This document shows, one piece after another, positions 1 through 36,430 of a DNA stretch of 64,000 bases. The notes under the pieces are model-generated. The model was not told where the DNA came from, ran no database searches, and saw only the letters and a list, made by a program, of their open reading frames with translations. This DNA is from an uncultured cyanobacterium (GTDB lineage: Bacteria; Cyanobacteriota; Cyanobacteriia; Cyanobacteriales; Cyanobacteriaceae): assembly GCA_963749915.1 (NCBI GenBank), contig CAVVOP010000020.1:160001-224000 (forward strand). Reading direction: 5' to 3'. The position numbers and the translations under genes are program-made. The number at the start of each line of letters is the position of its first letter. The first letter of the stretch is position 1.

Positions 1-351
1 AAATTGCTCTTGCTGTTGAGCGATCGCTTCTTTCCAAGCGGTTTGTTTTTCCTTGACTTGCTGACGTGCTTGTTTGACCAAATTATGATACTCTTCCTCC
101 CCCTCTTTTTGAGCTTGAATCATAATTTCTTGCCGTTTTTGCTGTAACTGCCGTTGTTTTTCCTCGTATAAGACTGCTTGTGCTTCAGCTACTTCTTGTT
201 TTTCTCTTGCTTCTTGCCAATGGCGATCGATTTCCTCCTGTCGTGCACTAATGGTTTTAATTATCGGTCGATATAAAAAGCGATGTAACAAAAAAACCAG
301 AATCAGAAAATTGGCCAGTTGGGCGATAATGGTAAACCAATCAATTAACAA
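1..351 (-). CDS. atpF: N-ATPase F0 subunit b, runs off the window edge
   Basis: Manual translation from TTG at 351 gives MLIDWFTIIAQLANFLILVFLLHRFLYRPIIKTISARQEEI, a subunit-b N-terminal helix followed by coiled coil. Directly downstream of atpE; absent from the ORF track. Confidence 0.9.
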   Translation of the reverse strand, partial: MLIDWFTIIAQLANFLILVFLLHRFLYRPIIKTISARQEEIDRHWQEAREKQEVAEAQAVLYEEKQRQLQQKRQEIMIQAQKEGEEEYHNLVKQARQQVKEKQTAWKEAIAQQQEQF

Positions 352-12072: not shown

Positions 12073-12142
12073 TATGACTCCTTTACTGGCAAATTATGGA
12101 AAAACGATATATGGAGTATTCAGCCGTCAGCTACCAGCAAAT

Positions 12143-12985: not shown

Positions 12986-13051
12986 ACCAGTCCTCCTTAT
13001 AAAAAAAAGTTGCGTTCCTTACAGGATTTATTTATTGAATTTGAAAACTGT

Positions 13052-14839
13052 TTATTGAGAAAAGATCAGCACACTGTAGGGTCCAATGGAAAGCGTCCCA
13101 TGCCAAGGAAGCCCATCATAGGCACCCGACTCGGCGATGACGTCAGTGCTGGGATGGTTTTTGAAATCGTCATTATAGCCCTGCCAATCGCTGTTGAAAC
13201 GGAGCTTCCAGGTTCCTGCTGCCGGGAAACCGATGAGGTAGCCATCCTGCGCGTCACGGAAGAAGTTGGCAACGACCACAACATCATCCGCCGATCCGCC
13301 CTTGTCCCAGCGATGGAAAGCGATGACCTTGCGGTCTTCGTCCAGATGATAGACCTCGGTGAACTGTCCGCAGAGTCCACGGGTGAAGCCCTCGAGGTTG
13401 AGCCGCAACCGGATGAGGTCACGGTATAGCCGAACGATGCCATGAAACTCGTCCCGTTGGTCCCAATCGACGGGGACTGTGTCGCGGAACCATCCTCCTT
13501 CGAGGAATTCCTGACCTTGGAAAAGCATGGGGATACCCGGGGCGGTGAAGACCATCGCGGCGGCCAGTGTCGAACGTTTCCTTGCATACCAGCCCTTGGG
13601 GTCGTTCGGGCTGATCTCTTGTGGTACGCGGGAGCTACCATTCGCCACTGCATCGTGGGATTCGCTGTAGATGACCCGGTCGAAAGCATCATCGTTGTAC
13701 CGGTAGCAGATGGCATCGCGGATGGCGGCAAGGGAGCGTTGCTCGTCTTGGGAAGAGATCACCGCCTGGCGGATGGGATGGACGAACATGGCATCCCACT
13801 GAGAGCTGAACCCAGCCCCACCTGCGCCAACATCCTTGGTGAGCCATCTGTTGTTTTGAAGATCTTCCGCGATCGTGATCCGGCCGGGGAATTTCTCTGC
13901 TACCTCGCTATTGATCCACTGGAGCAGACTCCAGCCATCAGGCAAGTCCCGATCTTTAGAGCCGTCCACCGTGTGAATGAATTGGGTCGCATCGAAGCGA
14001 AAGCCATCAACGTGGTATTCATTGAGCCACATCAAGATGTTATCAACAAGGTATTGACGAACCTCGCCACGTCCGTAATCGGGTCTGGTTTCTCCCCAGG
14101 GCGTGTGGGCCCGATCATCGTTGTAGAAGTAGATTCCACCGCGATCGTTCTCGCACCAGCCGTCAAACTGCCAAAGATCGAGGTCGCTGGGTCCTAGGTG
14201 GTTGTAAACAACGTCTAGGATCACCGCAATGCCCTCCTGGTGAGCTCGCTTGACGAACTGCTTAAACGCCAACGGACCTCCGTAGGTGATCTCCACCGAG
14301 AAGATATGGGCGGGGTTGTAACCCCAAGACCAGTCTCCCGCAAACTCGCCTATTGGCATGATCTGGATCGCATTGATGCCCAGTTTTTTCAAATGTCCTA
14401 GACGGGTTGATATTGAGGGGAACTTGCCTGGACGGTTAATATCCTCTTGATCGTTGAACGTGCCGACATGAAGTTCGTAGATGGCCAGTTCGTTCCATGA
14501 GGCGATATGGAAGTCATCCCCTTGCCAGTCAAAGCTCGGATCGTGAACGATCGCGTTTCCGACCGAGTTGGTCACCTCGCGGGCATAGGGGTCAATGCGC
14601 TTGAACTCGCCCCTCGGCGTGGACAGAAAGAACCGATACTGATCCCCAGCTTTAGCCTCGGCTATGTTGACGTACCAGTAACCGTTCTCTTCGGCTTGCA
14701 TGGGGTGCTTGGTATCTTCCCAGTCGTTGAAAGAGCCGATGACGGATACTCCCTGTGCATGGGGTGCCCACACGCGGAAAGCTACTCCTTGGGTGTGGAG
14801 AATTGATCCCATTCCCTTAATCTTGGTTTCATCGCTCAT
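13052..14839 (-). CDS. GH13 alpha-glucan enzyme with CBM48 (branching-enzyme/TreZ-like)
   Basis: FRVWAPHA, YELHVGTF, WGYNP, DVVYNH, FRFD, IAED, ESHD; GGAGG RBS before ATG at 14839. Confidence 0.88.
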   Translation of the reverse strand: MSDETKIKGMGSILHTQGVAFRVWAPHAQGVSVIGSFNDWEDTKHPMQAEENGYWYVNIAEAKAGDQYRFFLSTPRGEFKRIDPYAREVTNSVGNAIVHDPSFDWQGDDFHIASWNELAIYELHVGTFNDQEDINRPGKFPSISTRLGHLKKLGINAIQIMPIGEFAGDWSWGYNPAHIFSVEITYGGPLAFKQFVKRAHQEGIAVILDVVYNHLGPSDLDLWQFDGWCENDRGGIYFYNDDRAHTPWGETRPDYGRGEVRQYLVDNILMWLNEYHVDGFRFDATQFIHTVDGSKDRDLPDGWSLLQWINSEVAEKFPGRITIAEDLQNNRWLTKDVGAGGAGFSSQWDAMFVHPIRQAVISSQDEQRSLAAIRDAICYRYNDDAFDRVIYSESHDAVANGSSRVPQEISPNDPKGWYARKRSTLAAAMVFTAPGIPMLFQGQEFLEGGWFRDTVPVDWDQRDEFHGIVRLYRDLIRLRLNLEGFTRGLCGQFTEVYHLDEDRKVIAFHRWDKGGSADDVVVVANFFRDAQDGYLIGFPAAGTWKLRFNSDWQGYNDDFKNHPSTDVIAESGAYDGLPWHGTLSIGPYSVLIFSQ

Positions 14840-14956
14840 GGTTGGTTCCTCCATTACAAAGATTATCCGATAAGTTTGGCGATGGTGAAATTCGCCGGCA
14901 CGGCTCCGGTGCACGTACCGCTTGAACCGGTTGAGCAGTCAGGCTCTCGGAATGGA

Positions 14957-15148
14957 TCACTTACCGATACGAATTCCCCGGAGAAAACTAAGCAATCCGA
15001 ACACCTTAAGAATCCACAAAATGAGGGCGACGACAACCACAATGTTCAAGATTTGCTTGATCTTGCTGTCCATCGGAATGTAGTTGTTCACGAGCCACAA
15101 TAGAACCCCAACTACGATGATAACGACCACAAACTGGACTAAATCCAT
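14957..15148 (-). CDS. Small membrane protein, Thivi_2564-like
   Basis: VGVLLWLVNNYIPMDSKIKQILN between two hydrophobic helices; AGGAGG RBS. Confidence 0.8.
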   Translation of the reverse strand: MDLVQFVVVIIVVGVLLWLVNNYIPMDSKIKQILNIVVVVALILWILKVFGLLSFLRGIRIGK

Positions 15149-15273
15149 GACTAACCTCCTTTCTATTATCTAATGAGTGGTGACTTGAACTAAATAGCTA
15201 TAGTATTCGTTAAGCATTTTATTTTCTCCATGATCAATTATTCTGGTTTCATCGCTTCGACCTTGTTTACCTC

Positions 15274-15969
15274 CTATAGGACCGTTCCGAACAGAGCCCC
15301 TACAGCAGCAGTCAGCCCCATCGCCAGCACACCCCAAAAGGCAATTCGAACAGCCGATTTCATCACTGGCGCTCCACCTGCACGGGCAGCTAGTACCCCC
15401 AATGCAGTGAGAAAGATGAGAGAGTTCCCAAATACAACGGGCACCAATCTCGATTCGGGCGCTACCAGCACGGTGAGAAGCGGCATAGCTGCACCCACAG
15501 CAAACGCGCCTGCCGATGCCAGTGCCGCTTGCACTGGTCGAGCTGCCAAGCTCTCGGAGATAGCCAGTTCATCACGTGCGTGTGCACCTAATGCGTCATG
15601 AGCCATCAACTGCTTGGCAACTTGTTTTGCTAACAAAGGATCGAGGCCACGATCCACATAGATTGCAGCCAGTTCCTCCCGCTCGGATTGTTCGTCGATA
15701 TTGAGTTCTTTCCGTTCACGGGAAAGGTCAGCTTTCTCGGTATCAGCTTGTGAACTGACCGATACATATTCCCCAGCCGCCATGGACATTGCCCCAGCTA
15801 CCAGGCCAGCCACCCCAGCCACTAAGACTTCGCTGCGAGACCCGTGGGCTGCTGCCACCCCAACGACAAGGCTTGCCGTTGAAACAATGCCGTCGTTTGC
15901 ACCCAAAACTGCGGCACGTAGCCAGCCGATTCGTCCCGTACGATGTCGTTCTTTATGGCTTCTGGGCAT
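15274..15969 (-). CDS. VIT1/CCC1 family Fe/Mn transporter
   Basis: LRAAVLGANDGIVS, SMAAGEYVSVSSQ, HARDEL. Confidence 0.93.
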   Translation of the reverse strand: MPRSHKERHRTGRIGWLRAAVLGANDGIVSTASLVVGVAAAHGSRSEVLVAGVAGLVAGAMSMAAGEYVSVSSQADTEKADLSRERKELNIDEQSEREELAAIYVDRGLDPLLAKQVAKQLMAHDALGAHARDELAISESLAARPVQAALASAGAFAVGAAMPLLTVLVAPESRLVPVVFGNSLIFLTALGVLAARAGGAPVMKSAVRIAFWGVLAMGLTAAVGALFGTVL

Positions 15970-16005
15970 TTTCTTGCTCTCCCTTATGATTGAGGTGACG
16001 AGTAT

Positions 16006-19839: not shown

Positions 19840-22095
19840 TTAACCTTCATCCTGATAATAATTTTTGTAATCATAATAACCGTAACCATAATAACCACCC
19901 ATAGATTTTTTGACACCGTTAAGTACCATTCCTAAAATGGGCATTTTTGACATTTGTAAATCATTAAGTACCTGTCGGACATTAGGGCGATGAGTTTTTC
20001 CTAACCCAAGGATAAAAACAAGGCCATCAGTAAAAGGAATAAGAATTTTCCCATCAGAAAATCCCATCAGAGGTGGAGTGTCATAGATCACTAAATCGAA
20101 ATCTCCCTTCAATTTTGCCATTAAAGTTTGCATTTTTTGAGAGGAAATAATCCTCGTGGGATTAGGAGGTTTAGAACCGGCAGTGATGGCAAATAGATTT
20201 TCCTGTTCCGATGCTTGAATAACTTTCTCTAAAGGTATATCGTCTGTTATTAAATTACTGATTCCCATAGTATTTTTGATTCCTAAATATTTATGTAATT
20301 TAGGTTTACGCATGTCCACATCTACTATTAAAACTCTTTTGCCCAACATTGCCGCCGCTTTTGCTAAGAAAACAGTCGTAGTTGACTTTCCTTCACTCGC
20401 TTCCGCCGCCCCGACGACGATAGAACGAATAGAGCTGTCTGAGCTTAAAAGGTTAATATTCGTATAAAGGGAAAAATAAGCATCAAGGTTAGACATCGTT
20501 TCTGCATCAGCAAAAAGTCCTTTTCCTTGGTTAAAACTACTCTTAATTGATTTCTTTTTCTTATCGTTTACAACATCCAGGCTTTTATTATAAGGAATAA
20601 TCGCAAGAGTAGGCAAATCAATAGTGCTTTTAACATCCTCTACAGAATGAAATGCCGAATCCAGTCGATCAATTACAAAACCGAGTAATGTTCCTATGAA
20701 CATACTAGCAATAGTAATTAAAGCGATATTTTTCGTTGTGTCTGATACATCTTTAATAGTAGTTTCATCAATAGGTGTGAGTAACTTCCATGGAGAAGTC
20801 TGTTTTGCTACTTCTATTTGCAGATTTTCGCTGACTGCTAAGAGGCGATTTAAACTTTCACTGGCAGTCTGTAGCTCTCTTTGAATTTCTTGGTATTTTC
20901 TATTGGTGGTTGATAAAACATTAACTTTTGCATTAAGTTGTTCCCATGCTAGATCAAGTTGTTTCTGTTTTGATTGTAATACTTCAATTTGATTGTTGGT
21001 ATCAAAAAATTTCTGAGTCACTTCCACATTATTGGAAATCGAGGTCAGAAAATCTAAAGATAGATTTGACCCTTTACTACCCAGAATCTTATAAGTTTCC
21101 TGATTTAGTAATGATATTAATTCTTCTTTTTTGGCTCTCAATGTTTTGAGTATGGGGTGTTGAGTTCCCAATCTCACACTTTCTAAGGCCATTTGAGTGT
21201 CAATGTCTTTGATTTGGGAAATCAGTTTCCCATAATTAGTTTCTTTATTTAAACGAGAAACAATGTTCCCTTGTTCGGGCGTTAAATCCAACTTATTTGC
21301 TAGCTCATTACTTAGTTTCTTCATTCCGCTAAGTTCAGTTTGTACATTTTCGATTTCTCGCAATAGAAATCCAGCCTGTGATGATAACACTTCATTTTGA
21401 GTCTTAGGATCGATTAAATCATTAGTCTTTTGAAAATTTTCTAATTTCGACTCAAACATGGCTACGTCTTCAAGAACTCGATTTATTTGATCTTCGGCGA
21501 AAGCTTGGGCTTGAGTAATATTACTTATATACTCTTTCGATTGATAGTCTAAGTAACCCTTCATTAATTGATTTAATACAAACAATATTTCTTCTTCCGA
21601 TTCATCTGTATAACTAACCTCGAGAATTTTAGTTTCGCCGAATCGTTCAAGATTTAATTGGCTCATGAATTCCTTTTTTACTAATTCAGGATAACGAGAC
21701 TGAATTACCGGGAAAATAGTATCCATCACCAATGGACTTTTTAATACATCAATTTGACTATCATAATCCAAACCTGAATCGAAATATGAAGGTTTTGAAA
21801 AATTGTCCAAAAAATCTAATTTTTTACCTTCACTATTCAAAGGTTCAACAAGAAGTTTAAATTTTCCCTCATAAACTGGGGGCTGAAGTAAAATCCATGT
21901 AGATAAAGCCGTCACTAATGTAAGAGTTGTACCAATTATTATTAAGCCTCGTCTCCTGAAAACTCTCAACAATTCACTTATATTTATTTCATCATCATCA
22001 TCATCGGAAATGTTTGAATTTAAGTAAACTAATTTATTCGGTTCTTGATTCTGTGTCTGTAAATTATTGGTCTTGTCAGAGTTATTTAAAAACAT
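19840..22095 (-). CDS. wzc: GumC/Wzc polysaccharide co-polymerase tyrosine kinase
   Basis: Wzz-like N-terminal part, coiled coil, EGKST, DVDMRKP, YDTPP and Tyr-rich tail GGYYGYGYYDYKNYY. Confidence 0.92.
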   Translation of the reverse strand: MFLNNSDKTNNLQTQNQEPNKLVYLNSNISDDDDDEINISELLRVFRRRGLIIIGTTLTLVTALSTWILLQPPVYEGKFKLLVEPLNSEGKKLDFLDNFSKPSYFDSGLDYDSQIDVLKSPLVMDTIFPVIQSRYPELVKKEFMSQLNLERFGETKILEVSYTDESEEEILFVLNQLMKGYLDYQSKEYISNITQAQAFAEDQINRVLEDVAMFESKLENFQKTNDLIDPKTQNEVLSSQAGFLLREIENVQTELSGMKKLSNELANKLDLTPEQGNIVSRLNKETNYGKLISQIKDIDTQMALESVRLGTQHPILKTLRAKKEELISLLNQETYKILGSKGSNLSLDFLTSISNNVEVTQKFFDTNNQIEVLQSKQKQLDLAWEQLNAKVNVLSTTNRKYQEIQRELQTASESLNRLLAVSENLQIEVAKQTSPWKLLTPIDETTIKDVSDTTKNIALITIASMFIGTLLGFVIDRLDSAFHSVEDVKSTIDLPTLAIIPYNKSLDVVNDKKKKSIKSSFNQGKGLFADAETMSNLDAYFSLYTNINLLSSDSSIRSIVVGAAEASEGKSTTTVFLAKAAAMLGKRVLIVDVDMRKPKLHKYLGIKNTMGISNLITDDIPLEKVIQASEQENLFAITAGSKPPNPTRIISSQKMQTLMAKLKGDFDLVIYDTPPLMGFSDGKILIPFTDGLVFILGLGKTHRPNVRQVLNDLQMSKMPILGMVLNGVKKSMGGYYGYGYYDYKNYYQDEG

Positions 22096-22225
22096 AGTTA
22101 AAATTTTTTGGGATAGCAGTGTTTTAGTAAGTAAACAAGAAAAAGACGAAATTCAGGTAACTATAAGGTTTCTGTATCAAAATTGGTGTTAATTTTAATT
22201 CATTCAATAATTTATTGTAATGAAA

Positions 22226-24124
22226 CTAAACAAGTAAGGGATTATTGAATTCAGGAACTAAAATTTTCAGTTGTTTGAGTACCTCTTCTGAATTTCCTTC
22301 CTTTGCCAGGTCGAGTAAACTTTCTAAATTCGGTTGCAAAATTTCCCATTCTAGCATTGGTTCGTTCCCCGAAAATATCTGTGGGTGTTGACTCGGATTA
22401 CTATTATTTTTGTCGATTAATAGTTCTTCATATAGCTTTTCTCCCGGTCTTAACCCGATAATGTCAATTTTGATATCTTTTCCCGCTTCCATACCACTTA
22501 ATTCTATCATTTTTACCGCTAGATCATAAATAAGTACAGGATTACCCATATCTAACAAAAAAATTTCTCCGCCTTTTGCCATGGCCCCCGCTTGAATGAC
22601 TAAACTAACGGCTTCTGGAATGGAAATAAAATAACGGGTTACATTTTTATGGGTTAGGGTAATTGGTTTTCCTTCACTTATTTGTTTTCGGAAACGAGGA
22701 ATTACCGAACCGCTACTATTTAACACATTGCCAAAACGAACGATGGCAAAAATAGTTTTCGTCCTTTTCTGCGCTGCTAAACCCTGGATAACCAATTCTG
22801 CGACTCTTTTACTTGCTCCCATAACATTTGTAGGACGTACAGCTTTATCCGTAGAAATGAAAACGAAATTTTTTACTCCACAGGCTATAGCCGAACGGGC
22901 TGTGGTCAAAGTCCCCGCAACGTTATTATAAACTCCGACACAAGGATTCATTTCCACTAAAGGAACGTGTTTATAGGCGGCGGCATGATATATTGTTTCA
23001 ACGTTGTGTTTTTTTAAAATTTTTTGAAAATACAACTCGTCGGTAATATTTCCTAAATAAGGATAAATAGGCACATCACAATTTTTTTCTCTTAGTTCTA
23101 AATCAATATCATAAAGAGCAAACTCATTTAGCTCAAATAATACCAGACATTTCGGTTGTAGTTGAGATATCTGGCGACATAACTCTGAACCGATAGAGCC
23201 CCCCGCACCGGTAACCAAAACGGTCTTATGGGTAATATTTACCCTCAATAGGATATGATTAGGAGTAATTTCTTCTCTACCCAATAGTTCCGATACATCA
23301 ATATTCCTTATTTCAGAAACGGATGCTTGATTAGATAATAATTCTCTAAGATTAGGAATGGTTTTAAATTTAATAGGTAATAAGTTCAAACTTTCAATAA
23401 TTTCCTTTCGTCTTGAACTGGTTAAATTGGGAATAGCAAAAATTAGGGTTTGAAAAGGTTTTTGCCGATACAGTGATTGTAAATGATGAGGGCGATAAAT
23501 CGGAATGTTTCCTATGATTCTTCCTTCTAATTCTGGGTTATCATCAATAAAAGCTAATAATTTATATTCTGGATTTTGCTCTAAACTCTGTGCCAATTGG
23601 TATCCAGCTGAACCAGCTCCGTAAATGACCAAAGATTCTCGTGAGTACGAGTCCCACTGGAGAATAATGAGGGATTTAATCAGAGAACGAATTGTTATAC
23701 GTGATGCCGTAATGGCAATAATTGATATTAAACCATCTATAAGCATTACTGACTCACCAATAGAATCAGAAGCAAACAAAAATACTAATAGAATTCCAAT
23801 AATAGTACTAACAATAACAGACTTAGTAATTTTTGAGAAAAAACCTATATCTGTATATTTTGTCACTGGACGATATAGACCAAAGAATCGAAATATTAAA
23901 ACTTTTGAGACGAGATGAACTGTTATTAGCGGAAGGAAAAGATCAAATAGCTCGAAAGTGTGAGGAAGACTATAGAAGATATTAAAGGCTGAGAATATAG
24001 AGACTACAGACACAAGAAAATCAAGACATAATAATATAACTTCTTTTTGCCATCGCGATAAATCGCTATATTGTGGGGTGAACCGAATAAATAGATTTTG
24101 AAGAAGCATTTTTTTGACGATCAT
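22226..24124 (-). CDS. CapD/WbpM/PglF-type nucleotide-sugar 4,6-dehydratase
   Basis: TGAGGSIGSELCRQ, HAAAYKHVP, STDKAVRP, RFGNVL, GLRPGEKLYEEL. Confidence 0.92.
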   Translation of the reverse strand: MIVKKMLLQNLFIRFTPQYSDLSRWQKEVILLCLDFLVSVVSIFSAFNIFYSLPHTFELFDLFLPLITVHLVSKVLIFRFFGLYRPVTKYTDIGFFSKITKSVIVSTIIGILLVFLFASDSIGESVMLIDGLISIIAITASRITIRSLIKSLIILQWDSYSRESLVIYGAGSAGYQLAQSLEQNPEYKLLAFIDDNPELEGRIIGNIPIYRPHHLQSLYRQKPFQTLIFAIPNLTSSRRKEIIESLNLLPIKFKTIPNLRELLSNQASVSEIRNIDVSELLGREEITPNHILLRVNITHKTVLVTGAGGSIGSELCRQISQLQPKCLVLFELNEFALYDIDLELREKNCDVPIYPYLGNITDELYFQKILKKHNVETIYHAAAYKHVPLVEMNPCVGVYNNVAGTLTTARSAIACGVKNFVFISTDKAVRPTNVMGASKRVAELVIQGLAAQKRTKTIFAIVRFGNVLNSSGSVIPRFRKQISEGKPITLTHKNVTRYFISIPEAVSLVIQAGAMAKGGEIFLLDMGNPVLIYDLAVKMIELSGMEAGKDIKIDIIGLRPGEKLYEELLIDKNNSNPSQHPQIFSGNEPMLEWEILQPNLESLLDLAKEGNSEEVLKQLKILVPEFNNPLLV

Positions 24125-24279
24125 AAAAAAATTATTTAGTCAATTATATGGGCAAATATAATATAACTGTTGATAATAATCATAAGTTAATAATCAGTCA
24201 ACCTAAATTCAGATATTTGAAGATAACAAAAAGGGGAGTGCTAACTAGTTAACATCCAAATAAATGGCATTCATAAACG

Positions 24280-24310
24280 AAAAAAAAGGCGAACTATACA
24301 TAGTTCACCC
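24280..24310 (-). terminator. Intrinsic terminator of dnaK
   Basis: Minus strand GGTGAACTA-TGTA-TAGTTCGCC followed by T8. Confidence 0.85.
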
Positions 24311-24370
24311 GTAAAATTAATAACAAATTACAAACTTGAAAAAATAAATCAAGGCAAAAAATCTGAAAAT

Positions 24371-26269
24371 CTAGTTGTCAGAGAATTCTGCATCAATGAC
24401 ATCCTCACCACTATTACTTGAACCGGTGTCATTAGTGCCACTGGTATCTGTGCCTGGAGTTGCACCACCAGATTGCTGATAAATGTTACTACCGATGGTA
24501 TACAACACCTGTTGTAATTCTGGCATGACGGTTTTGATTTTCTCGTCATTTTCTTTAGCTACAGCATCTTTAAGATCTTTAATCAATCCTTCGGCTTTGG
24601 CTTTATCATCGGCGGAAACTTTATCTCCTAATTCCGTGAGTTGTTTCTCTGCTTGATAAACTAAAGAATCAGCCTGGTTTTTACGCTCAATAGCATCTCG
24701 TCTTTCTTTATCTGTCGCCGCATTGGATTCAGCTTCCTTGACCATACGATCGACTTCATCAGAAGGTAAAGTGGAAGCACCAGTAATACTGATGGATTGT
24801 TCTTTACCAGTACCTTTATCCTTGGCGGTTACATTTAAGATACCGTTAGCATCAATATCGAAAATAACTTCTATTTGGGGTACGCCACGAGGTGCAGGAG
24901 GAATACCATCTAAACGGAAAGTTCCCAAACTCTTGTTATCTTTAGAAAATTCTCTTTCACCTTGTAAAACGTGAATTTCTACGTTACTTTGTCCATCAAC
25001 GGCAGTAGAGAAGGTTTCCGATTTTTTGGTAGGGATAGTAGTGTTACGGGGAATAATTTTTGTCATTACACCGCCGAGGGTTTCCACACCCAGAGAAAGA
25101 GGAGTTACATCTAACAAGAGAATATCTTTAACTTCTCCGGCTAAAACACCCCCTTGAATAGCTGCCCCTACAGCCACTACTTCATCGGGATTAACAGTTT
25201 GATTAGGATCTTTTCCGAGAATTTTTTTGACTACTTCTTGGACGGCGGGAATACGAGTTGAACCACCAACTAAGACAACTTCATCAATATCGCTAGGGCT
25301 GAGTTTAGAGTCTTTAAGGGCATTTTGTACAGGGACAGCACAACGATCGATTAAATCAGCACATAACTCTTCAAATTTAGCTCTAGTTAAGGTTAATTCT
25401 AAATGCTTAGGTCCGTCTTGAGTAGCGGTAATAAAAGGTAAGTTAATTTCCGCTTGAGAAACGCTAGAGAGTTCGATTTTGGCTTTTTCAGCGGCTTCTG
25501 TTAACCGTTGTAAAGCCTGTTTATCTTTGCGTAGATCAATACCTTCCTTTCCTTTAAAGTCTGCCGCTAAGTGATCGACAATTTTTTTATCAAAATCATC
25601 ACCGCCTAAGTGGGTATCCCCAGAGGTGGATAAAACTTCAAATACACCATCACCAACTTCTAAAACAGAAACGTCAAAAGTACCACCACCTAAGTCAAAT
25701 ACTAAAATAGTTTCGTTGCTTTTTTTATCTAACCCATAAGCCAAAGATGCGGCGGTAGGCTCGTTAATAATACGTTTAACTTCGATGCCAGCGATTTTTC
25801 CCGCGTCTTTAGTGGCTTGACGTTGAGAGTCGTTAAAGTAAGCTGGTACGGTGATTACAGCCTCAGTAACTGTTTCTCCTAAATATTTACTGGCATCTTC
25901 GACCAATTTGCGTAAAACTTGGGCAGAAATTTCTTCAGGAGAGAATTGTTTACTTTGCGAGGGACAATCCAACTTCACATTGCCACCAACATTTAATACT
26001 TTATAAGATACTTCTGTGGTCTCGTTGGTGACCTCATCATATCTTCTACCGATAAAACGCTTAACGGAATAAAACGTATTTTCGGGATTCATTACCCCTT
26101 GACGTTTGGCAATTTGTCCGACAAGGCGATCGCCATTTTTAGCATAAGCTACTACGGAAGGAGTAGTCCTAAAACCCTCAGCATTGGCAATAACAACAGG
26201 TTTACCTCCCTCCATCACCGCCACACAAGAGTTGGTTGTACCTAAATCTATACCTACTACTTTTCCCAT
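24371..26269 (-). CDS. dnaK: Molecular chaperone DnaK (DnaK2 type)
   Basis: [36 protein letters not shown]-terminal DVIDAEF. Confidence 0.98.
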
Positions 26270-26462: not shown

Positions 26463-28028
26463 TTATTTTTCTGAAGATAAACCAAAAAGATTTTTGATTT
26501 TAAACCATTTTTGGCGTAAACTCCAAAATTTACTACTTTCCATAGCCGTAATTGTCTCTTGATGTTGAGCTAAAATTCTTCTAGTTTCTTGGAGTTTTTT
26601 CCCCGTTTTATTAAGTTTTTGATGGGTATTTTTTAGTTCTTGTTGTATGGAGTATAAAGCTAAATCTGCATAAATTTTTTCAAAATATAATCCTCTATTA
26701 TTGGCAGTAGTATTTGAAGCGGAAAATAGAGAAGAATTTGTTATATTTACTGATGAACTATCTAACAATTCTTGATATAATTGCAAATAATGATTAGCTT
26801 GAATGGACAATCCATAATTATTGGTAATTATTTCCCTCGATTTTTTTCCCATAGGGACCAATAATCCCTGACCATTAGTAAGTTGTATAATTTTTTCGCT
26901 CATGGATTGAATATCCCCATATGGCACTATTATTCCCGAAATTTGATCTTGAATTAAATCAGGGATTCCGCCGACATCAAAGGCAATAACTGGTGTGGCA
27001 CAACTCATGGACTCTAACATTGTATTGGGGAAATTATCTTCCAAAGACGGTAGAATGAAAATATCCGCCGCCGAATAAATCAGACTTAATTCCTCATCGG
27101 AGTTGATATTACCGAGGGAAATAATCTTTATTCCTAACTCTTGAAATGCCTGATTAGGTTCACCAAAACAGCAAATTTTTAAGCGATCATTTTTAATGAG
27201 TGCAGAAAATTGATGATTATTTTTACATATTTTTAAACTATTAATTAATTCCATAAACCCTTTTCTTTTTTCTTTTCCCGTAACGGCTCCCACTAATAAG
27301 ATAATGTCGTCAGCATTAAGATTGCAACTTTTTTTGGCTTCTAATTTATTAATAGGTCGAAAAACATTTGTATCTAAAGAATAAGGTATAACCTCGATTC
27401 TATTATGACGAAAAACTCGACTTTTTTTTGCAGACTCAGCCAACCATTTACTAGGGGTTACAATTACTAAATTAGGATCCTTAAAAAATTCTATTTTCTC
27501 TTGTAAAAGATGATGGGGTAATTGAAAAATATCCTCAGAAAGTTGAGGACAATTTAAGCAATTATTTTCATATCCTTGACATCCTGCCGTATAGTGACAC
27601 CCTCCGGTAAATGCCCACATATCATGAAGTGTCCACAGCACCGGCTTACCTAAATCCAGTAATTTTTTGATGGTTAGGGGTGATTGAAAACCACTGGTTA
27701 TCCAATGTAAATTGATAATATCACTATTAATAATTGGGTCTAATTTAGCGACATTAAACCCCGAATAACCTAAAGAAAATAAAGTATTAGAAATAGGGGT
27801 TCTATTATTATTAATATAATGATTTTGAATATAATTGCAATAGGTAGAATCCAAACTATTTTCGAATTTATTGAGTTTATATTCCAAAACATGAGTGTCG
27901 GCGGAGGTTTTATATAAACTTAATATTTGCGATTCCTGCCCTATTTTTAGTAGTCCTTCATGTAATCGATAAGCTGCTCTTGCTGCGCCTCCCGCAATGT
28001 CAAAAGTACTAAGATGTGTTATTTTCAT
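26463..28028 (-). CDS. Complete GT4 glycosyltransferase (WcaC-like) with coiled-coil/MESSKFW tail
   Basis: GGAARAAYRLH, INLHW, WTLHDMWAFTGGCHY, RKG, EDNFPNTMLE. Confidence 0.9.
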   Translation of the reverse strand: MKITHLSTFDIAGGAARAAYRLHEGLLKIGQESQILSLYKTSADTHVLEYKLNKFENSLDSTYCNYIQNHYINNNRTPISNTLFSLGYSGFNVAKLDPIINSDIINLHWITSGFQSPLTIKKLLDLGKPVLWTLHDMWAFTGGCHYTAGCQGYENNCLNCPQLSEDIFQLPHHLLQEKIEFFKDPNLVIVTPSKWLAESAKKSRVFRHNRIEVIPYSLDTNVFRPINKLEAKKSCNLNADDIILLVGAVTGKEKRKGFMELINSLKICKNNHQFSALIKNDRLKICCFGEPNQAFQELGIKIISLGNINSDEELSLIYSAADIFILPSLEDNFPNTMLESMSCATPVIAFDVGGIPDLIQDQISGIIVPYGDIQSMSEKIIQLTNGQGLLVPMGKKSREIITNNYGLSIQANHYLQLYQELLDSSSVNITNSSLFSASNTTANNRGLYFEKIYADLALYSIQQELKNTHQKLNKTGKKLQETRRILAQHQETITAMESSKFWSLRQKWFKIKNLFGLSSEK

Positions 28029-28047
28029 ATGTTATCGCCGTCATTCC

Positions 28048-28072
28048 AATTCCTAATTCCTAATTCCTAATT
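28048..28072. repeat. Heptamer tandem repeat (AATTCCT)x3
   Basis: Read directly in the intergenic spacer. Confidence 0.8.
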
Positions 28073-29738
28073 ATTCATCTGCCGGTAAGCCGAAAGTTTT
28101 TTTAACTTTAAACCATTTTTGCCGTAAACTCCAGAATTTACTGCTTTCCATGGCGGCAATTCTATCGTTAGCTTCTTTTAATTGATTTTCAATTTGTCGC
28201 ATTTCATTTTTAATATCCCCATATTGTATTTCATCAAAATAGCTAACTTGTATCATACTATTATCGTCAGAAGAGTTATTTTCTAATTGATAAACATGGT
28301 TTTCACACTTGTGCAACTGTTCTGTTGTTTGTTGCAACTTCCATCGTAAATCAGCCATTTGTGAGGGTAAATCTTGCAGTTGTTGTACTGCTGTTAATAA
28401 CATATATATTTGTCTTTTACGCCATTTCTCCGGAGGAATTTTGGCTAAAAATTGACGTAGGGAGTATTTCGCTTTGGCGGACATTTCCTGATGTAGGGGA
28501 TATTCGGAGGTGACGAAGTATTCATATAAAGGATAAGGATAATAAACAATATTTTCTCCCGTAACGACGGCGGCAGTGATGATTTCCCAATTCTGGCTAT
28601 CAATGTCTTTGTCTTCCGTATAGGGAAATTTATCTAATAATGTGCGAGAAAATAAACAACATTCTCCACCATAAGCATTACCTTTCATCATGGTGGGCAA
28701 TGTACCTCCAGCATAACTGACAATGCGATCAACTGCTCCAATTTCTTTTTGCGCACTGGTGACAATGACGGCATTGGCATTAACGGCGGTTTCGACAAAT
28801 TTTTCGATGGTTTGAGGAAAAAGGGTTACTTGAGGATTAAAAGACAAGAAAAAATCCCCTTCAGAAATGTCTAAAAGATGATTGCCTATTCCGCCAATGC
28901 CCTTAGTTTTTTGTAATTGTATAAATTTAAAGTTGGGGAAAAGAGATTTTGCATGAAGGAATAAGTCTTTACTTTCCGAATCTTGAGAGTTATCGTCAAT
29001 AATAATTACCTCTAAATGGGGATAAGTTTGAGTTTCAATACTACTGAGACAATCAATTAAATATTTTCCTTGATTGCGAGAAATAATCCCCAAAGTTACT
29101 TTATTTGTGGGTTTTTCGGTGGTTTTTACTTCGGCAAAAGCCTTGTCAATATAGGCAATTTTTTCCTGCAATAATTTTTGATTGATATTTTCTAAAGTAT
29201 TTTTATCAGCAACTTTTGGTGTTTGAGGATAATCCGTTAATGCTTCCTGCAATTTTTCCGCCAAAGAGTCCGCATCTTTTGGTTTAAACCAGTATAAACC
29301 CTCTGTACGTTGCACTAACTGTAAAGTTTCTCGGAAACCCCCCGTATCTGATACCACTAAACTTACGGGTAATTGTCCCATTTCTAAGGCTGTATTCGGG
29401 AAATTTTCTTGGGGACTGGTTAAGCATACTATGGCATGATCTAATTCTCGAATATACTCGATGGCCTGTTGACTATAAAAGTCACTAATAATTTCATAAC
29501 TAATATCATCATCCAATTCTTGCTCGATATATTGTTCACTATTTAGATGCTTTAATTCTGCGGAATACAAAGGGACAACTTTTCCCATGAAAATAATATT
29601 AATTTTTTCCTGCCATTCAAGGGGTAAAAATTTAACAGCAGAGATAAAAGTACATAAACCTTTTCTTTCTTCTAAACGTCCAAAAAAAACCAATGAAATT
29701 AGATCATTTTTCTCAGTCTTTAAAGATTCTTGTGACAT
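28071..29738 (-). CDS. GT4 C-terminal (donor-binding) domain + GT2-like domain + coiled-coil/MESSKFW tail
   Basis: FFGRLEERKG begins at residue 17; ENFPNTALE (EX7E) and SDTGG follow; then CLSSIETQTYPHLEVIIIDDNSQD. Confidence 0.85.
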   Translation of the reverse strand: MSQESLKTEKNDLISLVFFGRLEERKGLCTFISAVKFLPLEWQEKINIIFMGKVVPLYSAELKHLNSEQYIEQELDDDISYEIISDFYSQQAIEYIRELDHAIVCLTSPQENFPNTALEMGQLPVSLVVSDTGGFRETLQLVQRTEGLYWFKPKDADSLAEKLQEALTDYPQTPKVADKNTLENINQKLLQEKIAYIDKAFAEVKTTEKPTNKVTLGIISRNQGKYLIDCLSSIETQTYPHLEVIIIDDNSQDSESKDLFLHAKSLFPNFKFIQLQKTKGIGGIGNHLLDISEGDFFLSFNPQVTLFPQTIEKFVETAVNANAVIVTSAQKEIGAVDRIVSYAGGTLPTMMKGNAYGGECCLFSRTLLDKFPYTEDKDIDSQNWEIITAAVVTGENIVYYPYPLYEYFVTSEYPLHQEMSAKAKYSLRQFLAKIPPEKWRKRQIYMLLTAVQQLQDLPSQMADLRWKLQQTTEQLHKCENHVYQLENNSSDDNSMIQVSYFDEIQYGDIKNEMRQIENQLKEANDRIAAMESSKFWSLRQKWFKVKKTFGLPADE

Positions 29739-29768
29739 AATTTTTAGATAAATTTTTTGAAAATAAAG

Positions 29769-31367
29769 TTAACCAATTAATAATTTTTCTACGATAGATA
29801 ATTCAGTATCAGGTTGATAAAGGGCAGTTTGTTTGATTAATTCTAACTCTTTTTGGGCTTCCGCCATGTCGCCTAAATTAATTAATACCATGATTTTCGC
29901 TGCCAGAATATTAGGTTTAGCCTCAGGAGGAACTATACTTAAAGAATAATCAAAGGCTTGATTGATTTCGGTACGAGAAAAATCCTCAAGAGAGTAAGTT
30001 TTTTGTAGAAGTTCTGAAGGAATTTGCCTGATATATTTGAAAATTACTGAACCCCTGGGGACATATAACATAGGTTCAAAATAGTCTTTTAAACGATACA
30101 TAATTAAATGAATCCAAACGCAACGATAATGACAAAAATCTTGATGTTGAATCACCGAAATATTAGGCACTAAAGCTGGAAAAAATTCTTGTAAAATATG
30201 ATTAGTCAAGTTCCAATCTTTCATTGCATCAACTAATAAAAATTCAATGGGTTTATTCTCCTCCCATGTCATGGTTTTTAAATCCCCTACATGAATTTTC
30301 ACTTGATTTTCATAAGGTTTAATTTGTTCAATAAAACTATCTAAAAAATTATCTTCATCATTATACTTATTTTCTAAAGGCGTATTTTTTACTTCTTCAT
30401 TCATCCATTTTTTCCAAATAAATCGCTCATAAGCATGTATTTTTATCTGGTTATTATTAATATGAGAATTGTTATTTAATCCTATAACTAAAGGTAAAGT
30501 TAACGAACCCAACCAACAACCTAAATCAACAATTTCTCCCTGGCCAGTATATTCATTTTCAGCGTAATCTTTGACATAACATCTCTCTTGCTTTGATGTC
30601 ATTCCTAAAGCGTTAATAAGCCGAGATTCCAATTCATATTTTGTATAAGTTAAAATCGGTTGAATGGGGACAAAATAAGGACGATTATGGGCATGATTTG
30701 TTCGCCAACCATAGGATTCGACTTTATTTTTCAGGAAAAAAGAAGGGAAAAAAGCTAAATCTACATTCTCATAAGCCACCTGTTCTCGATGGCAAGATTT
30801 ATTAAACCAATCCTCTTTATTAATACTATCATTAGCCTCAAAAACCCATTCAAAACAACCATGAATAGTGATATTTGTCAAGCAATTTTTCCCCAACAAA
30901 TTCGCTTTTTTAGCCTGAATTGTATCATAACCAAATCCGTTAACATCAGGAAATTCTATATAAATTTTACTATCCTTAAAAGTAGAAGAAAACCCCTGAC
31001 AATAAAGCCAACTACCCACACTCTGATATTTAAAATAATAATCTTCTTTGGCTTGATTTAAGATAAATTTATGTTCTTGAGTTAAATTTAAAATCTCATC
31101 TACTTCCGAGACAGAAAAGATATGTTTTAACGCCCGAATATGAGATTTTCCACGATATTTTTCATCATTTTGACAAATAATTAAAATCACCGCCCAACCA
31201 GCTTGAGCCATTTTTTGACTTAAGCTAGTATAATAGGTACCAATGCCACCGTTACGGGAAAATCCTTCATATTCATTACTAATTAAAAGGGCAATTTTAG
31301 AATAATCTTCTCCTTGAAATTGTTGTAAAATTTTACTCTTAAAACTGATTAAATGTTGTTTGATCAT
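29769..31367 (-). CDS. GT4 N-terminal domain fused to a SAM methyltransferase (Methyltransf_24-like)
   Basis: EYEGFSRNGGIGTYY...IEFPD...TIHG...FFPSFFL; then IVDLGCWLGS and FLLVDAMK. Confidence 0.8.
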   Translation of the reverse strand: MIKQHLISFKSKILQQFQGEDYSKIALLISNEYEGFSRNGGIGTYYTSLSQKMAQAGWAVILIICQNDEKYRGKSHIRALKHIFSVSEVDEILNLTQEHKFILNQAKEDYYFKYQSVGSWLYCQGFSSTFKDSKIYIEFPDVNGFGYDTIQAKKANLLGKNCLTNITIHGCFEWVFEANDSINKEDWFNKSCHREQVAYENVDLAFFPSFFLKNKVESYGWRTNHAHNRPYFVPIQPILTYTKYELESRLINALGMTSKQERCYVKDYAENEYTGQGEIVDLGCWLGSLTLPLVIGLNNNSHINNNQIKIHAYERFIWKKWMNEEVKNTPLENKYNDEDNFLDSFIEQIKPYENQVKIHVGDLKTMTWEENKPIEFLLVDAMKDWNLTNHILQEFFPALVPNISVIQHQDFCHYRCVWIHLIMYRLKDYFEPMLYVPRGSVIFKYIRQIPSELLQKTYSLEDFSRTEINQAFDYSLSIVPPEAKPNILAAKIMVLINLGDMAEAQKELELIKQTALYQPDTELSIVEKLLIG

Positions 31368-31421
31368 GATTAAATATGGAAGGTAAAAATTGATTCTTGA
31401 CTTTTGATTTTTGCTGTATGG

Positions 31422-33095
31422 TTACTTTTGCATAATAAAGTTTAAAACTGCATTAGTAAAGGCAAAAGGCTTATTAATTTTTTGTTTAATGAAATAGTCT
31501 TTTAATAATTCTTCCTGCAATGTTACGGGAAAAAGTTTACGAATTAAAGAATCATCACCATCAGCAATAATTAAATCATTTAAGTCAGCATTAAGGGCAA
31601 TTTCAAACTCATGAAAACTTACACCATTTCCCCAACGAATTAATGTTTCTATTCCTTCACTTATATTTTTTTCCGCCATTGCTTGATCAAGAGAAAATTT
31701 AAAATCTTCTCTGGGAGATTTATGATAATATTCAATGGCTAAATCTTCTGGCAACATATGGAAAAAATCTAACCAGGAAGTGTGATGATCATAATATGTT
31801 AAGCGATTTGGAGTTTCTGTTATGATTAAAATTCCATGGGGTTTAAGTAATTTCCATGTTTCTGATAGCACTTCCAATCTCTCTTTGATTTTCATGTGCT
31901 CTAACACTGCAAATAAAAGAATCACATCAACACCATCACTATGATTTTTTTTAATTATTGATAATGAATTTTCAGGAGTAACCTGAGTTATATCAACATT
32001 GTTAATGCCCATTATTCTCATTCTTTCTCTAGACGCTTCTACATCCTTTTCGATAATTTCATAAGCATATATCTGGTTACAAAAATGAGCAAAAGCGGCT
32101 GTACTCGACCCTGTACCAGAACCAATTTCCAGCATATCTTTACCTTGTAAATTAAAATGCTTTATTACCCAAGGTACATAGTGATACAAAGTATTATCGT
32201 ATCTTAAAAATACATGATCATCTATATCTTTTTTTATTTCCTCACTTTCTAATCTTTCTTCATCTAATGATTGATAGTATGTTTTTTTTAAAGCTTGGGT
32301 CATTTCTTCTCTTCGTGTTGAATCATCAAACTTATATTTAACTAACTCATTTTTTTTGATATTCAATGTTTTTTTGACTTGTGGAATATAATTAGGCATT
32401 TTATTGCCCTTTTCTAAATCCCACCCATAGGATCGCACCCTTGTAGTTAAATAATGAGAAGGGAAAAACACTAAATCTGCATTTTCGCAGGAATATTGTT
32501 CATAATGTGCCACTTGCCACAGCCATTCTGGATACTCAATATTATACTTTTCATTAGCCTCATAAATCCATTCATGACCACTGTGCATCGTCACTGCCAC
32601 GGCACAATTATCCCCGAGAATATTAGTTTGTTTAGCTTGAAGACTATAATAACTAATACCTAACATGTCGTGGAACTCTATATATATTTTACTGTTAGGA
32701 AATTGATGGCTAATAGCTTGGAGAAAGAATAAACAACCATAGCCTAAATAATCCACCCATTCAGAGGCAACAGAAGCTAAAATTTGATGGTGAAAAGAAG
32801 ATAAATTAAGAGTTTTCCGAAGCTGGTTAGTAGTAAATATATGCTTAACTTCCTCTAATGCTGATTCTCCGAGATAATGGGATTCGGAATCACAAGAAAT
32901 TAAGATAACATACCAACCCTGGGAATATAATTTTTTGGCTAAATTTTTATAATAAGTACCAACGCCTCCATTGCGAAAAATTCCTTCATATTCAGTGGTC
33001 GGTAACACTGCAATTTTTTGGGGATTTATATAAGGAAATAGACTTTTTATATCTGAATGAAAAGTAATAATATTTTTTTTATCAAGAGTATTCAC
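31422..33095 (-). CDS. GT4 N-terminal domain fused to a class I SAM methyltransferase
   Basis: EYEGIFRNGGVGTYY...IEFHD...TMHSG...FFPSHYL; then LEIGSGTG, AVLEH and LLKPHG. Confidence 0.8.
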   Translation of the reverse strand: MNTLDKKNIITFHSDIKSLFPYINPQKIAVLPTTEYEGIFRNGGVGTYYKNLAKKLYSQGWYVILISCDSESHYLGESALEEVKHIFTTNQLRKTLNLSSFHHQILASVASEWVDYLGYGCLFFLQAISHQFPNSKIYIEFHDMLGISYYSLQAKQTNILGDNCAVAVTMHSGHEWIYEANEKYNIEYPEWLWQVAHYEQYSCENADLVFFPSHYLTTRVRSYGWDLEKGNKMPNYIPQVKKTLNIKKNELVKYKFDDSTRREEMTQALKKTYYQSLDEERLESEEIKKDIDDHVFLRYDNTLYHYVPWVIKHFNLQGKDMLEIGSGTGSSTAAFAHFCNQIYAYEIIEKDVEASRERMRIMGINNVDITQVTPENSLSIIKKNHSDGVDVILLFAVLEHMKIKERLEVLSETWKLLKPHGILIITETPNRLTYYDHHTSWLDFFHMLPEDLAIEYYHKSPREDFKFSLDQAMAEKNISEGIETLIRWGNGVSFHEFEIALNADLNDLIIADGDDSLIRKLFPVTLQEELLKDYFIKQKINKPFAFTNAVLNFIMQK

Positions 33096-35005: not shown

Positions 35006-36430
35006 ATGGATACTCATTTGCCACAAGCTCTTATTGTAACAGGGATGCATCGTTCTGGTACTTCTCTTTTATCCTCGTTACTCCAAAGTGCAGGAGTAAA
35101 TATTGGCCAAAAATTGGTTCCTGGGAATGACGGCAATCCTAAAGGTTATTTTGAAAATGCTGATTTTGTCAATTTTCATGAAAGTATCTTATTTTCTTTA
35201 GGTATTAATACAATTGGTTGGACTACCCAAGAACAAATTGTTCCACCTCTAAGTTATGCTGAGGAGGCACAAAGATTAATTGAGGAAAATCAGGATTTAG
35301 AAAGGCCTTGGGGATGGAAAGAACCGAGAACCACTCTTTTTCTCGATTTTTGGTCAGACTTATTACCTTCAGCCTATTTTATCTTCGTTTATCGATCCCC
35401 TTGGGAAGTTCTTGACTCTTTGTATAGGAGAGGAGATGATATTTTTCATCACAATCCTGAATTGGCTTTACAGGCTTGGAGTAGTTATAATCGGCAAATT
35501 TTACGTTTTTATCAAGCACACCCAGAAAAATGCCTATTATTTAATTTGGAGAAAGTCACGGCCAATCCCGATCATTTGATAGAGATGATTAACGGCAAAT
35601 TTAATTTATCTCTCCCACCGGTGGATTCTAGTATCTATGATGCTTCTTCTTTAAAAACGGACACCAGAAAATCTCAACGCCCTCATCTTTTAAAAATCTA
35701 TTTTCCGCAAATATGGGAACAATATCAAGAATTGAATACCATTACCGATTTTCACGATGCTTGTGTTGAGGCCGTAGAAAATTTATCTGATAATGCTTGG
35801 GTTTTGCAGGATTGGTTGAATGTCAGGGTTTTAGAAAAAAGGCTAAAACAAGAGAAGAAGTTTAGCGATGAGCATATACATTCTGTTTATCAAAAATTAG
35901 GGGAAACCACCGGGGAAAAAGAAGCTTTAGAGTTTCGGTTACAGCAATCTCAACAGGAATTAAATAATACTCAATCTCAGTTACAAGATAAGCAACAGGA
36001 GTTACAAAATACTCAGTCTCAGCTACAAGATAAGGAGCAAGAATTACATGACACTCAATATCAGCTACAAGCCCGTTTAGAACAAATCCAAGAGGAGTTG
36101 CAAGCTCGTTTAGAACAGATCCAAGAGGAGTTGCATAACACTCAATCTCATTTACAACAGACTCAACAGGAATTGCAAGATAAAAAATATGAATTACAAC
36201 AAGGGGATTTGAGGTTTAAGGAGTTACATTTTTATTTCGAGCGTTCTCAGGAAGAATTAAAACAAACTCAGGATAAACTGGCGGACATAGGCGTAAATCT
36301 CCAAGAAAAAGAAGAAGAGTTACGACATAGTCAAGAGAAAATTGTATCAATGGAAACTACTAAATTTTGGCAAATGAGGCAGCGGTGGTTTAAAATTAAA
36401 CGATCTTTAGGTATGGTAAAACAGGAATAG
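35006..36430 (+). CDS. Sulfotransferase-like domain + long coiled coil + METTKFW tail
   Basis: TGMHRSGTS, WGWKEPRT, YRSPWEV; Q/E-rich repeats. Confidence 0.85.
   Translation: MDTHLPQALIVTGMHRSGTSLLSSLLQSAGVNIGQKLVPGNDGNPKGYFENADFVNFHESILFSLGINTIGWTTQEQIVPPLSYAEEAQRLIEENQDLERPWGWKEPRTTLFLDFWSDLLPSAYFIFVYRSPWEVLDSLYRRGDDIFHHNPELALQAWSSYNRQILRFYQAHPEKCLLFNLEKVTANPDHLIEMINGKFNLSLPPVDSSIYDASSLKTDTRKSQRPHLLKIYFPQIWEQYQELNTITDFHDACVEAVENLSDNAWVLQDWLNVRVLEKRLKQEKKFSDEHIHSVYQKLGETTGEKEALEFRLQQSQQELNNTQSQLQDKQQELQNTQSQLQDKEQELHDTQYQLQARLEQIQEELQARLEQIQEELHNTQSHLQQTQQELQDKKYELQQGDLRFKELHFYFERSQEELKQTQDKLADIGVNLQEKEEELRHSQEKIVSMETTKFWQMRQRWFKIKRSLGMVKQE

Follow-up and report, generated by a model that had tools for sequence, protein, structure and literature searches.

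We analysed a stretch of 64,000 nucleotides from an uncultured cyanobacterium of the family Cyanobacteriaceae (assembly GCA_963749915.1, contig CAVVOP010000020.1, positions 160,001 to 224,000 of the forward strand), which is referred to below, at its full length, as the window. The subject is a group of three consecutive genes whose products, P0001, P0002 and P0003, contain what appear to be the separated halves of glycosyltransferase family 4 (GT4) enzymes of the GT-B fold: two acceptor-side N-terminal halves (N1 and N2), each joined to a different methyltransferase (MTa and MTb), and a single donor-side C-terminal half (C). N domains of this family are sorted into an HS and an HG type by the residue that follows their conserved histidine; N1 is of the HS type and N2 of the HG type. 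The three long open reading frames (ORFs) listed by an initial annotation of the window are indeed open throughout, lie on the minus strand and are separated by 54 bases (P0001 to P0002) and 30 bases (P0002 to P0003). The window's own genome (G000; 34 contigs, 100% complete) contains exactly two N-halves and one C-half of this family, and a whole-genome search returned no second C-half. The main features are as follows.

31422..33095, minus strand: gene 1, P0001, 557 amino acids (aa), HS-type GT4 N-half (N1) plus methyltransferase MTa
32382..33020, minus strand: N1 acceptor-side Rossmann domain, residues 26-238, with EYEG..RNGG.GTYY, EFH and MHSGHEW; predicted to dock on C
31425..32330, minus strand: MTa, class I S-adenosylmethionine (SAM) methyltransferase (Methyltransf_11/12/25/31), strain-variable cassette
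29769..31367, minus strand: gene 2, P0002, 532 aa, HG-type GT4 N-half (N2) plus methyltransferase MTb
30660..31298, minus strand: N2 acceptor-side Rossmann domain, residues 24-236, with IHGCFEW
29772..30608, minus strand: MTb, Methyltransf_24-like domain plus short helical tail; nearest solved folds MeT1, MycF and NovP
28071..29738, minus strand: gene 3, P0003, 555 aa, GT4 C-half plus glycosyltransferase family 2 (GT2)-like domain, helical spacer and conserved tail
29124..29699, minus strand: C donor-side Rossmann domain, residues 14-205, with R21/K26, E111-x7-E119 and helix 179-205
28389..29102, minus strand: GT2-like domain, DxD replaced by NPQ
28074..28208, minus strand: C-terminal tail with MESSKFW motif

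The initial annotation had described a homologous start of about 240 aa in both upstream proteins, and this holds: the first ~247 residues of P0001 and P0002 are 40% identical (E 1e-58), and the remainders cannot be aligned. Neither protein matches the GT4 C-terminal models PF00534 and PF13692 or a profile of this family's own C-half, in keeping with the proposed lack of a donor half. N1 scores 28.7 against PF13439, just above the cut-off of 28.5, and N2 scores 14.9, below it; the structural model of N2 (predicted local distance difference test score, pLDDT, 84.5) is matched by Foldseek to sucrose-phosphate synthase (SPS), glycogen synthases, MshA and BshA, and VIA-align superposes it on the N-domains of GlgM, SPS, BshA and MshA with Z 12.6-14.3. 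The GlgM match (Z 14.3, root-mean-square deviation 3.5, 177 aligned) covers chain residues -1..181, the N-terminal domain of a retaining GT-B enzyme. The Gly-rich loop and the His after beta-4, whose roles in the GT4 N-domain we take as given, are kept in both N1 and N2, as are 23/23 (N1) and 21/23 (N2, with conservative changes) of the near-invariant columns, defined by conservation of 97% or more across 147 fused N domains. N1 and N2 are thus GT-B acceptor halves, as had been proposed. A Pfam scan to E 0.1 returned for the halves only models of GT4/GT5 type, with no Alg14 or GT28 model, and searches of PDB sequences with the N and C profiles gave no match.

P0003 had been annotated as the missing half followed by a GT2-like domain, which is correct in outline. 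Its N-terminus matches PF00534 (residues 11-179, E 1.2e-13, 51.4 bits against a cut-off of 26.4) and carries GRLEERKG at 20-27 and ENFPNTALE at 111-119; R21, K26 and E119 are invariant and E111 is near-invariant in 42 C-half rows. PF00535 follows at residues 218-330, with a feature that had been overlooked: NPQ stands where DAD (DxD) is expected, so that the GT2 domain is probably catalytically dead. The DxD is absent from the shared-C or HG-linked GT2 domain in every two-type locus tabulated and present in four of seven distinct one-N split loci (L042, L050, L053 and L060; not L038, L063 or L089), which suggests that a second GT4 acceptor half took over the step of the GT2 domain. The ~45-residue tail of P0003, likewise overlooked at first, is common to five proteins of G000, namely a GT4, the C-GT2 protein, a sulfotransferase-like protein, a DUF6473 protein and an FkbM methyltransferase (window 26463-28028, 28071-29738 and 35006-36430; G000:C8:622459-623541; G000:C21:297352-298392). 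MTa and MTb have no tail of their own; it sits on the C protein, where it could be a signal for the membrane or for targeting to a complex. In another protein, P0084, DUF6473 precedes C-GT2 in one chain and takes the place that the N-half has left; G000 has DUF6473 as a separate, tailed protein.

The modelling of N-half and C-half together, put forward as a check in the initial annotation, was run for N1 with C, the pair for which there is no natural re-fusion. The prediction score was 0.86 in three runs, against 0.00 for the best of three controls, a result that we read as compatibility of the two chains; at least 86% of contacts agreed between runs, and the partner pLDDT was at least 84. The pass mark, met by 116/157 solved and 2/215 mismatched pairs, is approximate here, as custom alignments were used. 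In the predicted complex, C helix 179-205 packs on N1 residues 136-138, 165-167, 208-210 and 233-242, and N1 G44/H171 face C residues 25 and 110-119. A crossover helix and a cleft of this kind are usual in GT-B enzymes, and N1 plus C is predicted to rebuild a GT-B active site. The predicted interface positions are shared by N1 and N2 in 18/36 cases and the other positions in 78/201, and conservation is higher at the interface columns than elsewhere in the domain in 8/8 N1 and 12/12 N2 sequences; the contrast with N domains from genomes lacking C is weak (n=3). The N1-C interface is a predicted one, and binding of N2 to C in trans would be its counterpart.

The family is patchily distributed. 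A search with one protein found N in 9/401 genomes of the phylum; other counts were 4/20 genomes of the window's own family, 25/401 of the order (three weak partial matches included), and 17/331 of family f6, and C was found in 4/89 genomes of family f7 and 11/401 of the class sample. The weak partial matches in G513, G636 and G041 were dropped before the halves were counted, as were G1289 and G1281, which have frameshifts inside C and are likely broken or mis-sequenced. In the majority of carriers the proteins are fused, as a rule with N-C-MTb next to N-C-GT2. A survey for the same split, also suggested at the outset, found a free C in nine genomes, namely G000, G296, G407 and G409 (f1), G693, G694, G724 and G735 (f7) and G1051 (f20), of which seven, from two families, have two free N-halves. 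The 2 N plus 1 C arrangement is present in 4/4 same-genus genomes that hold the family and also in G724 and G693 of another family, and G694 has two free N, one free C and one fused copy; tandem N pairs occur in the metagenome loci L029, L030, L031/32 and L039 as well. The halves remain intact even where they are apart, as in G409, whose N1 is on another contig, and in G724, where C is encoded on the opposite strand. Next to the N1 gene set apart in G409 (L070:8390-11443) is an IS66 transposase, and an ABC-2 permease gene lies nearby.

A free-looking GT4 C-fragment at G000:C25 was considered as a second donor half and rejected as a piece of a frameshifted gene of another family. That gene (G000:C25:4614-5753; L109:2615-3754) has several frameshifts, and its last piece resembles a free C-half. 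Loci of the reciprocal build, N-GT2 plus C-MTb, were sought and none was found; the genomes with N-GT2 have no family C, and the sole C-MTb protein, P0155, is encoded on a contig of 2.7 kb and is possibly incomplete. One metagenome contig (L052 + L055) encodes MTa-N-C-MTb and MTa-N-MTb without C, which is either a further case of a C-less copy next to a complete one or an error of assembly. Very long HG-type fusions of 1.6-2.2 kaa (thousand aa), seen at L022, L043, L044, L051, L100 and L118, have one more domain at the N-terminus, PhyH-like according to a named relative, and a second GT2 that follows the tail.

The two acceptor halves and the donor half have different histories. HS and HG types occur together in 26/26 of the counted genomes that have at least two full N domains, a count that left out nine further regions and does not represent 26 independent events, because relatives share history; the HG type arose more than once. 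N1 and N2 are old, distinct types, both of which the fused relatives hold as complete enzymes. The N tree (IQ-TREE, 80 rows; near-duplicate loci were dropped from the trees) joins the N2 clade (100/99) to fused HG-type N domains as its sister group (97/89) and keeps the N1 group apart (97/89). N1 and N2 as a single clade are rejected by the approximately unbiased (AU) test (p-AU 0.018, for groups defined after an earlier tree was seen), and the tree and test together rule out a recent duplication of one N-half. The tree of C domains puts the window's C into a clade made up of 15 free and two fused members (100/96), apart from the clade of fused HG-type C. The sister relationship of N2 to fused HG-type N, taken with this position of C, means that the donor half ancestral to N2 has been lost.

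Two fused proteins bear directly on the pairing of N2 with a donor half that is not its own. In L028 and P0019, two independent sequences, an N2-clade N is fused to a C of the split clade, and both trees place them within the split clades (identity of P0019: 62% with N2, 58% with P0003). They are natural re-fusions and demonstrate that a non-ancestral pair, N2-type N and C, is able to make up a single chain. Seven fused/free state changes are needed among the 74 rows of the C tree, so that the cut has repeatedly opened and closed. The ratio of nonsynonymous to synonymous substitution rates (dN/dS, by Nei-Gojobori) among G000/G407/G409 was 0.087-0.104 for N1, 0.054-0.075 for N2 and 0.054-0.099 for C, at dS 0.5-0.8, and for L031 versus L039 it was 0.074, 0.089 and 0.078, respectively; 40 fused-control values ranged over 0.074-0.417. 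All three halves are under strong purifying selection. One of the outcomes that the initial annotation had named as speaking against its proposal joins two observations, of which one was made, in that homologues are mostly fused, and the other, relaxation of the halves, is contradicted by these ratios.

In GT-B enzymes, acceptor and donor specificity reside in separate domains, and recombination of such domains has been attempted by engineers. Two different front halves face a single back half, which is probably common to two enzymes, and we consider, with a probability of about 62%, that one donor half serves two acceptor halves in the synthesis of a surface glycan. The system would be a naturally split GT4 (retaining GT-B) enzyme in which the C protein binds the nucleotide sugar and its last helix completes whichever acceptor half docks, N1 or N2. 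Two enzymes would result, with one donor sugar and a different choice of acceptor or linkage, and N1 and N2 might act in turn on a single C or together on a C oligomer. In the fused relatives the same task would fall to two complete paralogues, of which one is HS-type and the other HG-type; in the lineage of the window one donor half would have been lost and the survivor shared. The methyltransferases would ride on the N-halves as exchangeable cassettes and thereby be brought to the complex, which is probably kept at the membrane through the tail of the C protein. As the product we consider an O-methylated surface glycan most likely, perhaps also sulfated, with a lipopolysaccharide (LPS) O-chain, an exopolysaccharide (EPS) and an RTX-protein glycan as candidates.

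A fuller form of this proposal, on which we would not quite accept an even wager, is that of a natural combinatorial glycosyltransferase: two active enzymes from one free donor half and two acceptor halves unrelated by descent, at least one of them non-ancestral to it, making a two-linkage polymer in place of the dead GT2 step, with the N-C interface as a socket for strain-to-strain methyltransferase swaps. If this is true, evolution has made a shared-donor, plug-in GT4, the natural counterpart of engineered mix-and-match enzymes. One family includes fused, 1:1 split, 2:1 split, re-fused and C-less forms, which makes the rules of cross-chain pairing directly testable, and likewise whether the acceptor half alone sets the linkage. 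Splitting by itself recurs; what is unusual is the 2:1 design, the mismatched ancestry, the natural re-fusion and the C-less control series.

Several observations weigh against a shared donor half. G538, G1100 and G1093, the last a closed single-contig genome, keep an N-half fused directly to GT2 (L081:3296-4999, L110:9070-10854 and L111:6127-7857), and no family C-half was found in them. The dN/dS of these C-less N domains, 0.24-0.32 at dS ~0.3, is well below 1, if somewhat above that of fused controls of similar dS (about 0.14-0.22). N thus persists under selection in three C-less genomes, and an N-half can endure where C is missing; it may then be a binding module or the slowly decaying passenger of a working GT2. 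G735 and G1051 (2/9 free-C genomes) have a free C with one N only, the HS half. The assembly prefix of L028 also holds N1 and N2-MTb on another contig (L029), possibly from another organism. Finally, the score of N1 with C may stem from likeness to single-chain GT-B structures, as the controls were unrelated proteins and not other GT-B halves; resemblance to solved folds can be enough for the halves of a split gene to pass, which is why the result speaks for compatibility and not for binding.

The persistence of C-less N domains keeps alive the main alternative, that only one N-half, probably the HS-type N1, works with C, the other being a non-catalytic glycan-binding or docking module that brings a methyltransferase or aids the active enzyme. 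We regard this as unlikely, though to be taken seriously: the C-less domain at L111, one of four such sequences, keeps all 23 near-invariant columns, the HS half is present in 9/9 free-C genomes versus 7/9 for the HG half, and N2 carries MTb in 5/7 two-N genomes. On the other hand, N2 has no cargo at all in G694, G693, L030 and L039 and is still conserved, as the low ratio for L031/L039 illustrates; N2-clade domains have been re-fused to C, and HG-type N is joined to an intact C in the fused relatives. Moreover, the C-less N domains look more relaxed, with Gly-loop residues lost in 2/4, and they sit on a GT2 that keeps its DxD (3/3 checked), which can itself explain their retention.

The methyltransferases bear on a second alternative, raised in the initial annotation, in which each N-half is tied to its own methyltransferase and the choice of partner couples one sugar addition to one methylation. 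The description of two dissimilar SAM methyltransferases stood with a qualification. MTa is clearly assigned to the class I SAM enzymes of Methyltransf_11 type; MTb has no Pfam match, and its model (pLDDT 94) most closely resembles the sugar O-methyltransferases MeT1, MycF and NovP, with 0.96-0.97 in the comparison with Methyltransf_24 clusters. A PDB sequence search returned only generic methyltransferases for MTa and only a weak TPR-like match for MTb. Both N-halves carry different methyltransferases in G000 and also in G724, where another enzyme is at the other end, and MTb, with its sugar O-methyltransferase-like fold, is under purifying selection (dN/dS 0.21-0.31); both speak for a fixed coupling. 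At L017:7980-9524, a premature TAG cuts off the last 22 residues of MTb, and the former end is still readable.

The cargo nevertheless varies from genome to genome. In the seven two-N genomes, the HS half bears MTa (G000), a different enzyme, MTc, at its N-terminus (G724 and G694) or no cargo at all (G296, G407, G409 and G693, where N1 is a stand-alone protein of 236-251 aa), and the HG half bears MTb in five and nothing in two. A search for MTa in five related genomes gave only generic matches (E ~1e-5). On public contigs X1#7 and X9#28, from two studies, N1 runs straight into N2 without MTa, one of them with 12 differences in 915 bases from the window; on X9#25 a diverged MTb lies between conserved N2 and C. 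These contigs were matched at 88% likeness, and the joints may derive from related organisms; the N1-MTa junction is bridged by none among the public pieces listed. MTb is carried by the HS protein in the fused relatives, in contrast to the HG half in the window. METHYLTRANSFERASES (MTa, MTb) thus appear to act as exchangeable cargo, and since the methyltransferases are swappable cassettes and N1 is usually alone, a fixed coupling of sugar and methylation is unsupported and, in our judgement, improbable. What survives of the combinatorial enzyme first proposed is a conserved, selected two-chain GT4 with two acceptor halves facing one donor half; the tying of each pairing to one methylation does not.

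Two further explanations concern the genes as such. That the three ORFs form one polyprotein by stop-codon read-through is brought to mind by the window junctions, both in frame with a single TAA each and no second stop, and by an N-to-C junction in frame in 12/17 rows (several of them near-duplicates); this very improbable arrangement is ruled out by an N1-N2 junction that is out of frame in all seven other loci with two full N genes, by extra stops in in-frame N-C gaps (L017/L069, L018, L031/L032, L038 and L060) and by the opposite strand of C in G724. That the three genes are remnants of fused genes in the course of decay, or a product of faulty assembly, as the patchy distribution, the frameshifted copies in G1289 and G1281 and the premature stop in L017 might hint, is scarcely credible and largely refuted by dN/dS values of 0.05-0.10, by the recurrence of the same break across dozens of clusters (of 170 proteins, 43 are C-GT2-tail and 20 are N-MTb, some of which may be contig-edge partials) and by contigs of two public runs, one of which may be the source sample, that cover the junction of MTb stop and C start with no difference.

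A donor half shared between two acceptor halves may be set beside the known divided enzymes. Natural two-chain GT-B enzymes include Alg14/Alg13 of eukaryotes and EpsE/EpsF of bacteria and archaea, with repeated re-fusions, according to excerpts of two papers (PMC8993221, PMC4973528). As in those pairs, GT-B is cut here at the interdomain linker into an acceptor and a donor chain; unlike them, GT1/MurG-related and with one acceptor chain per donor, the window system is GT4 with two N to one C, its acceptor halves differ in ancestry and each half carries extra enzyme domains. GT4 enzymes have both domains in one polypeptide, and here they are encoded by separate genes; by its motifs the system is otherwise GT4, and it would work like Alg13/14 without being a member. 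The excerpted text of a 2024 paper places all natural dimeric GT-B enzymes close to Alg13/14 and describes engineered halves from different parents (UGT74B1/UGT74C1) that, expressed separately, assemble into an active dimer, one of two engineered N-halves giving no purifiable dimer (PMC10937113); pairing is thus not automatic. The engineered dimer is artificial and GT1, its likeness to the present case being the different parentage of its halves. In WbdA, from the ABC-transporter-dependent polymerase-terminator system of E. coli O9a and Klebsiella O3/O5, several glycosyltransferase modules use one donor, one per linkage, and the methyltransferase WbdD is a coiled-coil protein with a membrane helix that recruits the polymerase, as stated in the part of PMC11231755 consulted; the modules of WbdA, unlike those of the window, are complete GT-B domains in one chain.

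The closest comparison is with the fused cyanobacterial relatives, which share the same domains, the HS and HG pairing and similar neighbours (RTX proteins and sulfotransferases) and differ in that N(HS)-C-MTb plus N(HG)-C-GT2 make two complete GT-B chains with two donor halves. The genes wzm/wzt lie beside the fused relatives L113 and L117, and wzt at L115; none lies beside the window genes, and one Wzt_C gene is on another G000 contig. No characterised fused relative was found in the literature searched, and open full-text literature, seen in part and with subscription papers and supplements outside the search, yielded no report of a natural shared-donor GT4 or of this family.

The genes around the group in the window are the following.

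26463..28028, minus strand: complete GT4 of another family, same tail as P0003
33232..34791, minus strand: RTX calcium-binding repeat protein, directly upstream of P0001
35006..38054, plus strand: sulfotransferase-like protein with the same tail, then methyltransferase and second sulfotransferase

In several related loci, too, the C gene is followed by a GT4 of the other family. L018 and L071 likewise have RTX genes at their flanks, and because of this recurrence and the RTX gene upstream here, the RTX surface protein is a candidate glycan carrier. N2 is 91% identical to the named locus L017, and the nearest named relatives are Geminocystis; N2-MTb proteins are annotated at source as 'hypothetical protein', a gap that we flag, as they carry no functional name there. 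A scan for promoters and terminators gave no excess over shuffles. Downstream, at window 19840-26269, are genes for a Wzc-like chain-length/kinase protein and a Polysacc_synt_2 dehydratase, with a gene between them and the cluster that is presumably DnaK-like, judging by its sequence. A short tandem repeat (ttaggaa units) occupies window 28040-28070, between the C gene and the next GT4 gene, and window 10001-16000 has a GC content of 50-57% versus ~35% around it, which suggests a foreign or RNA-gene segment.

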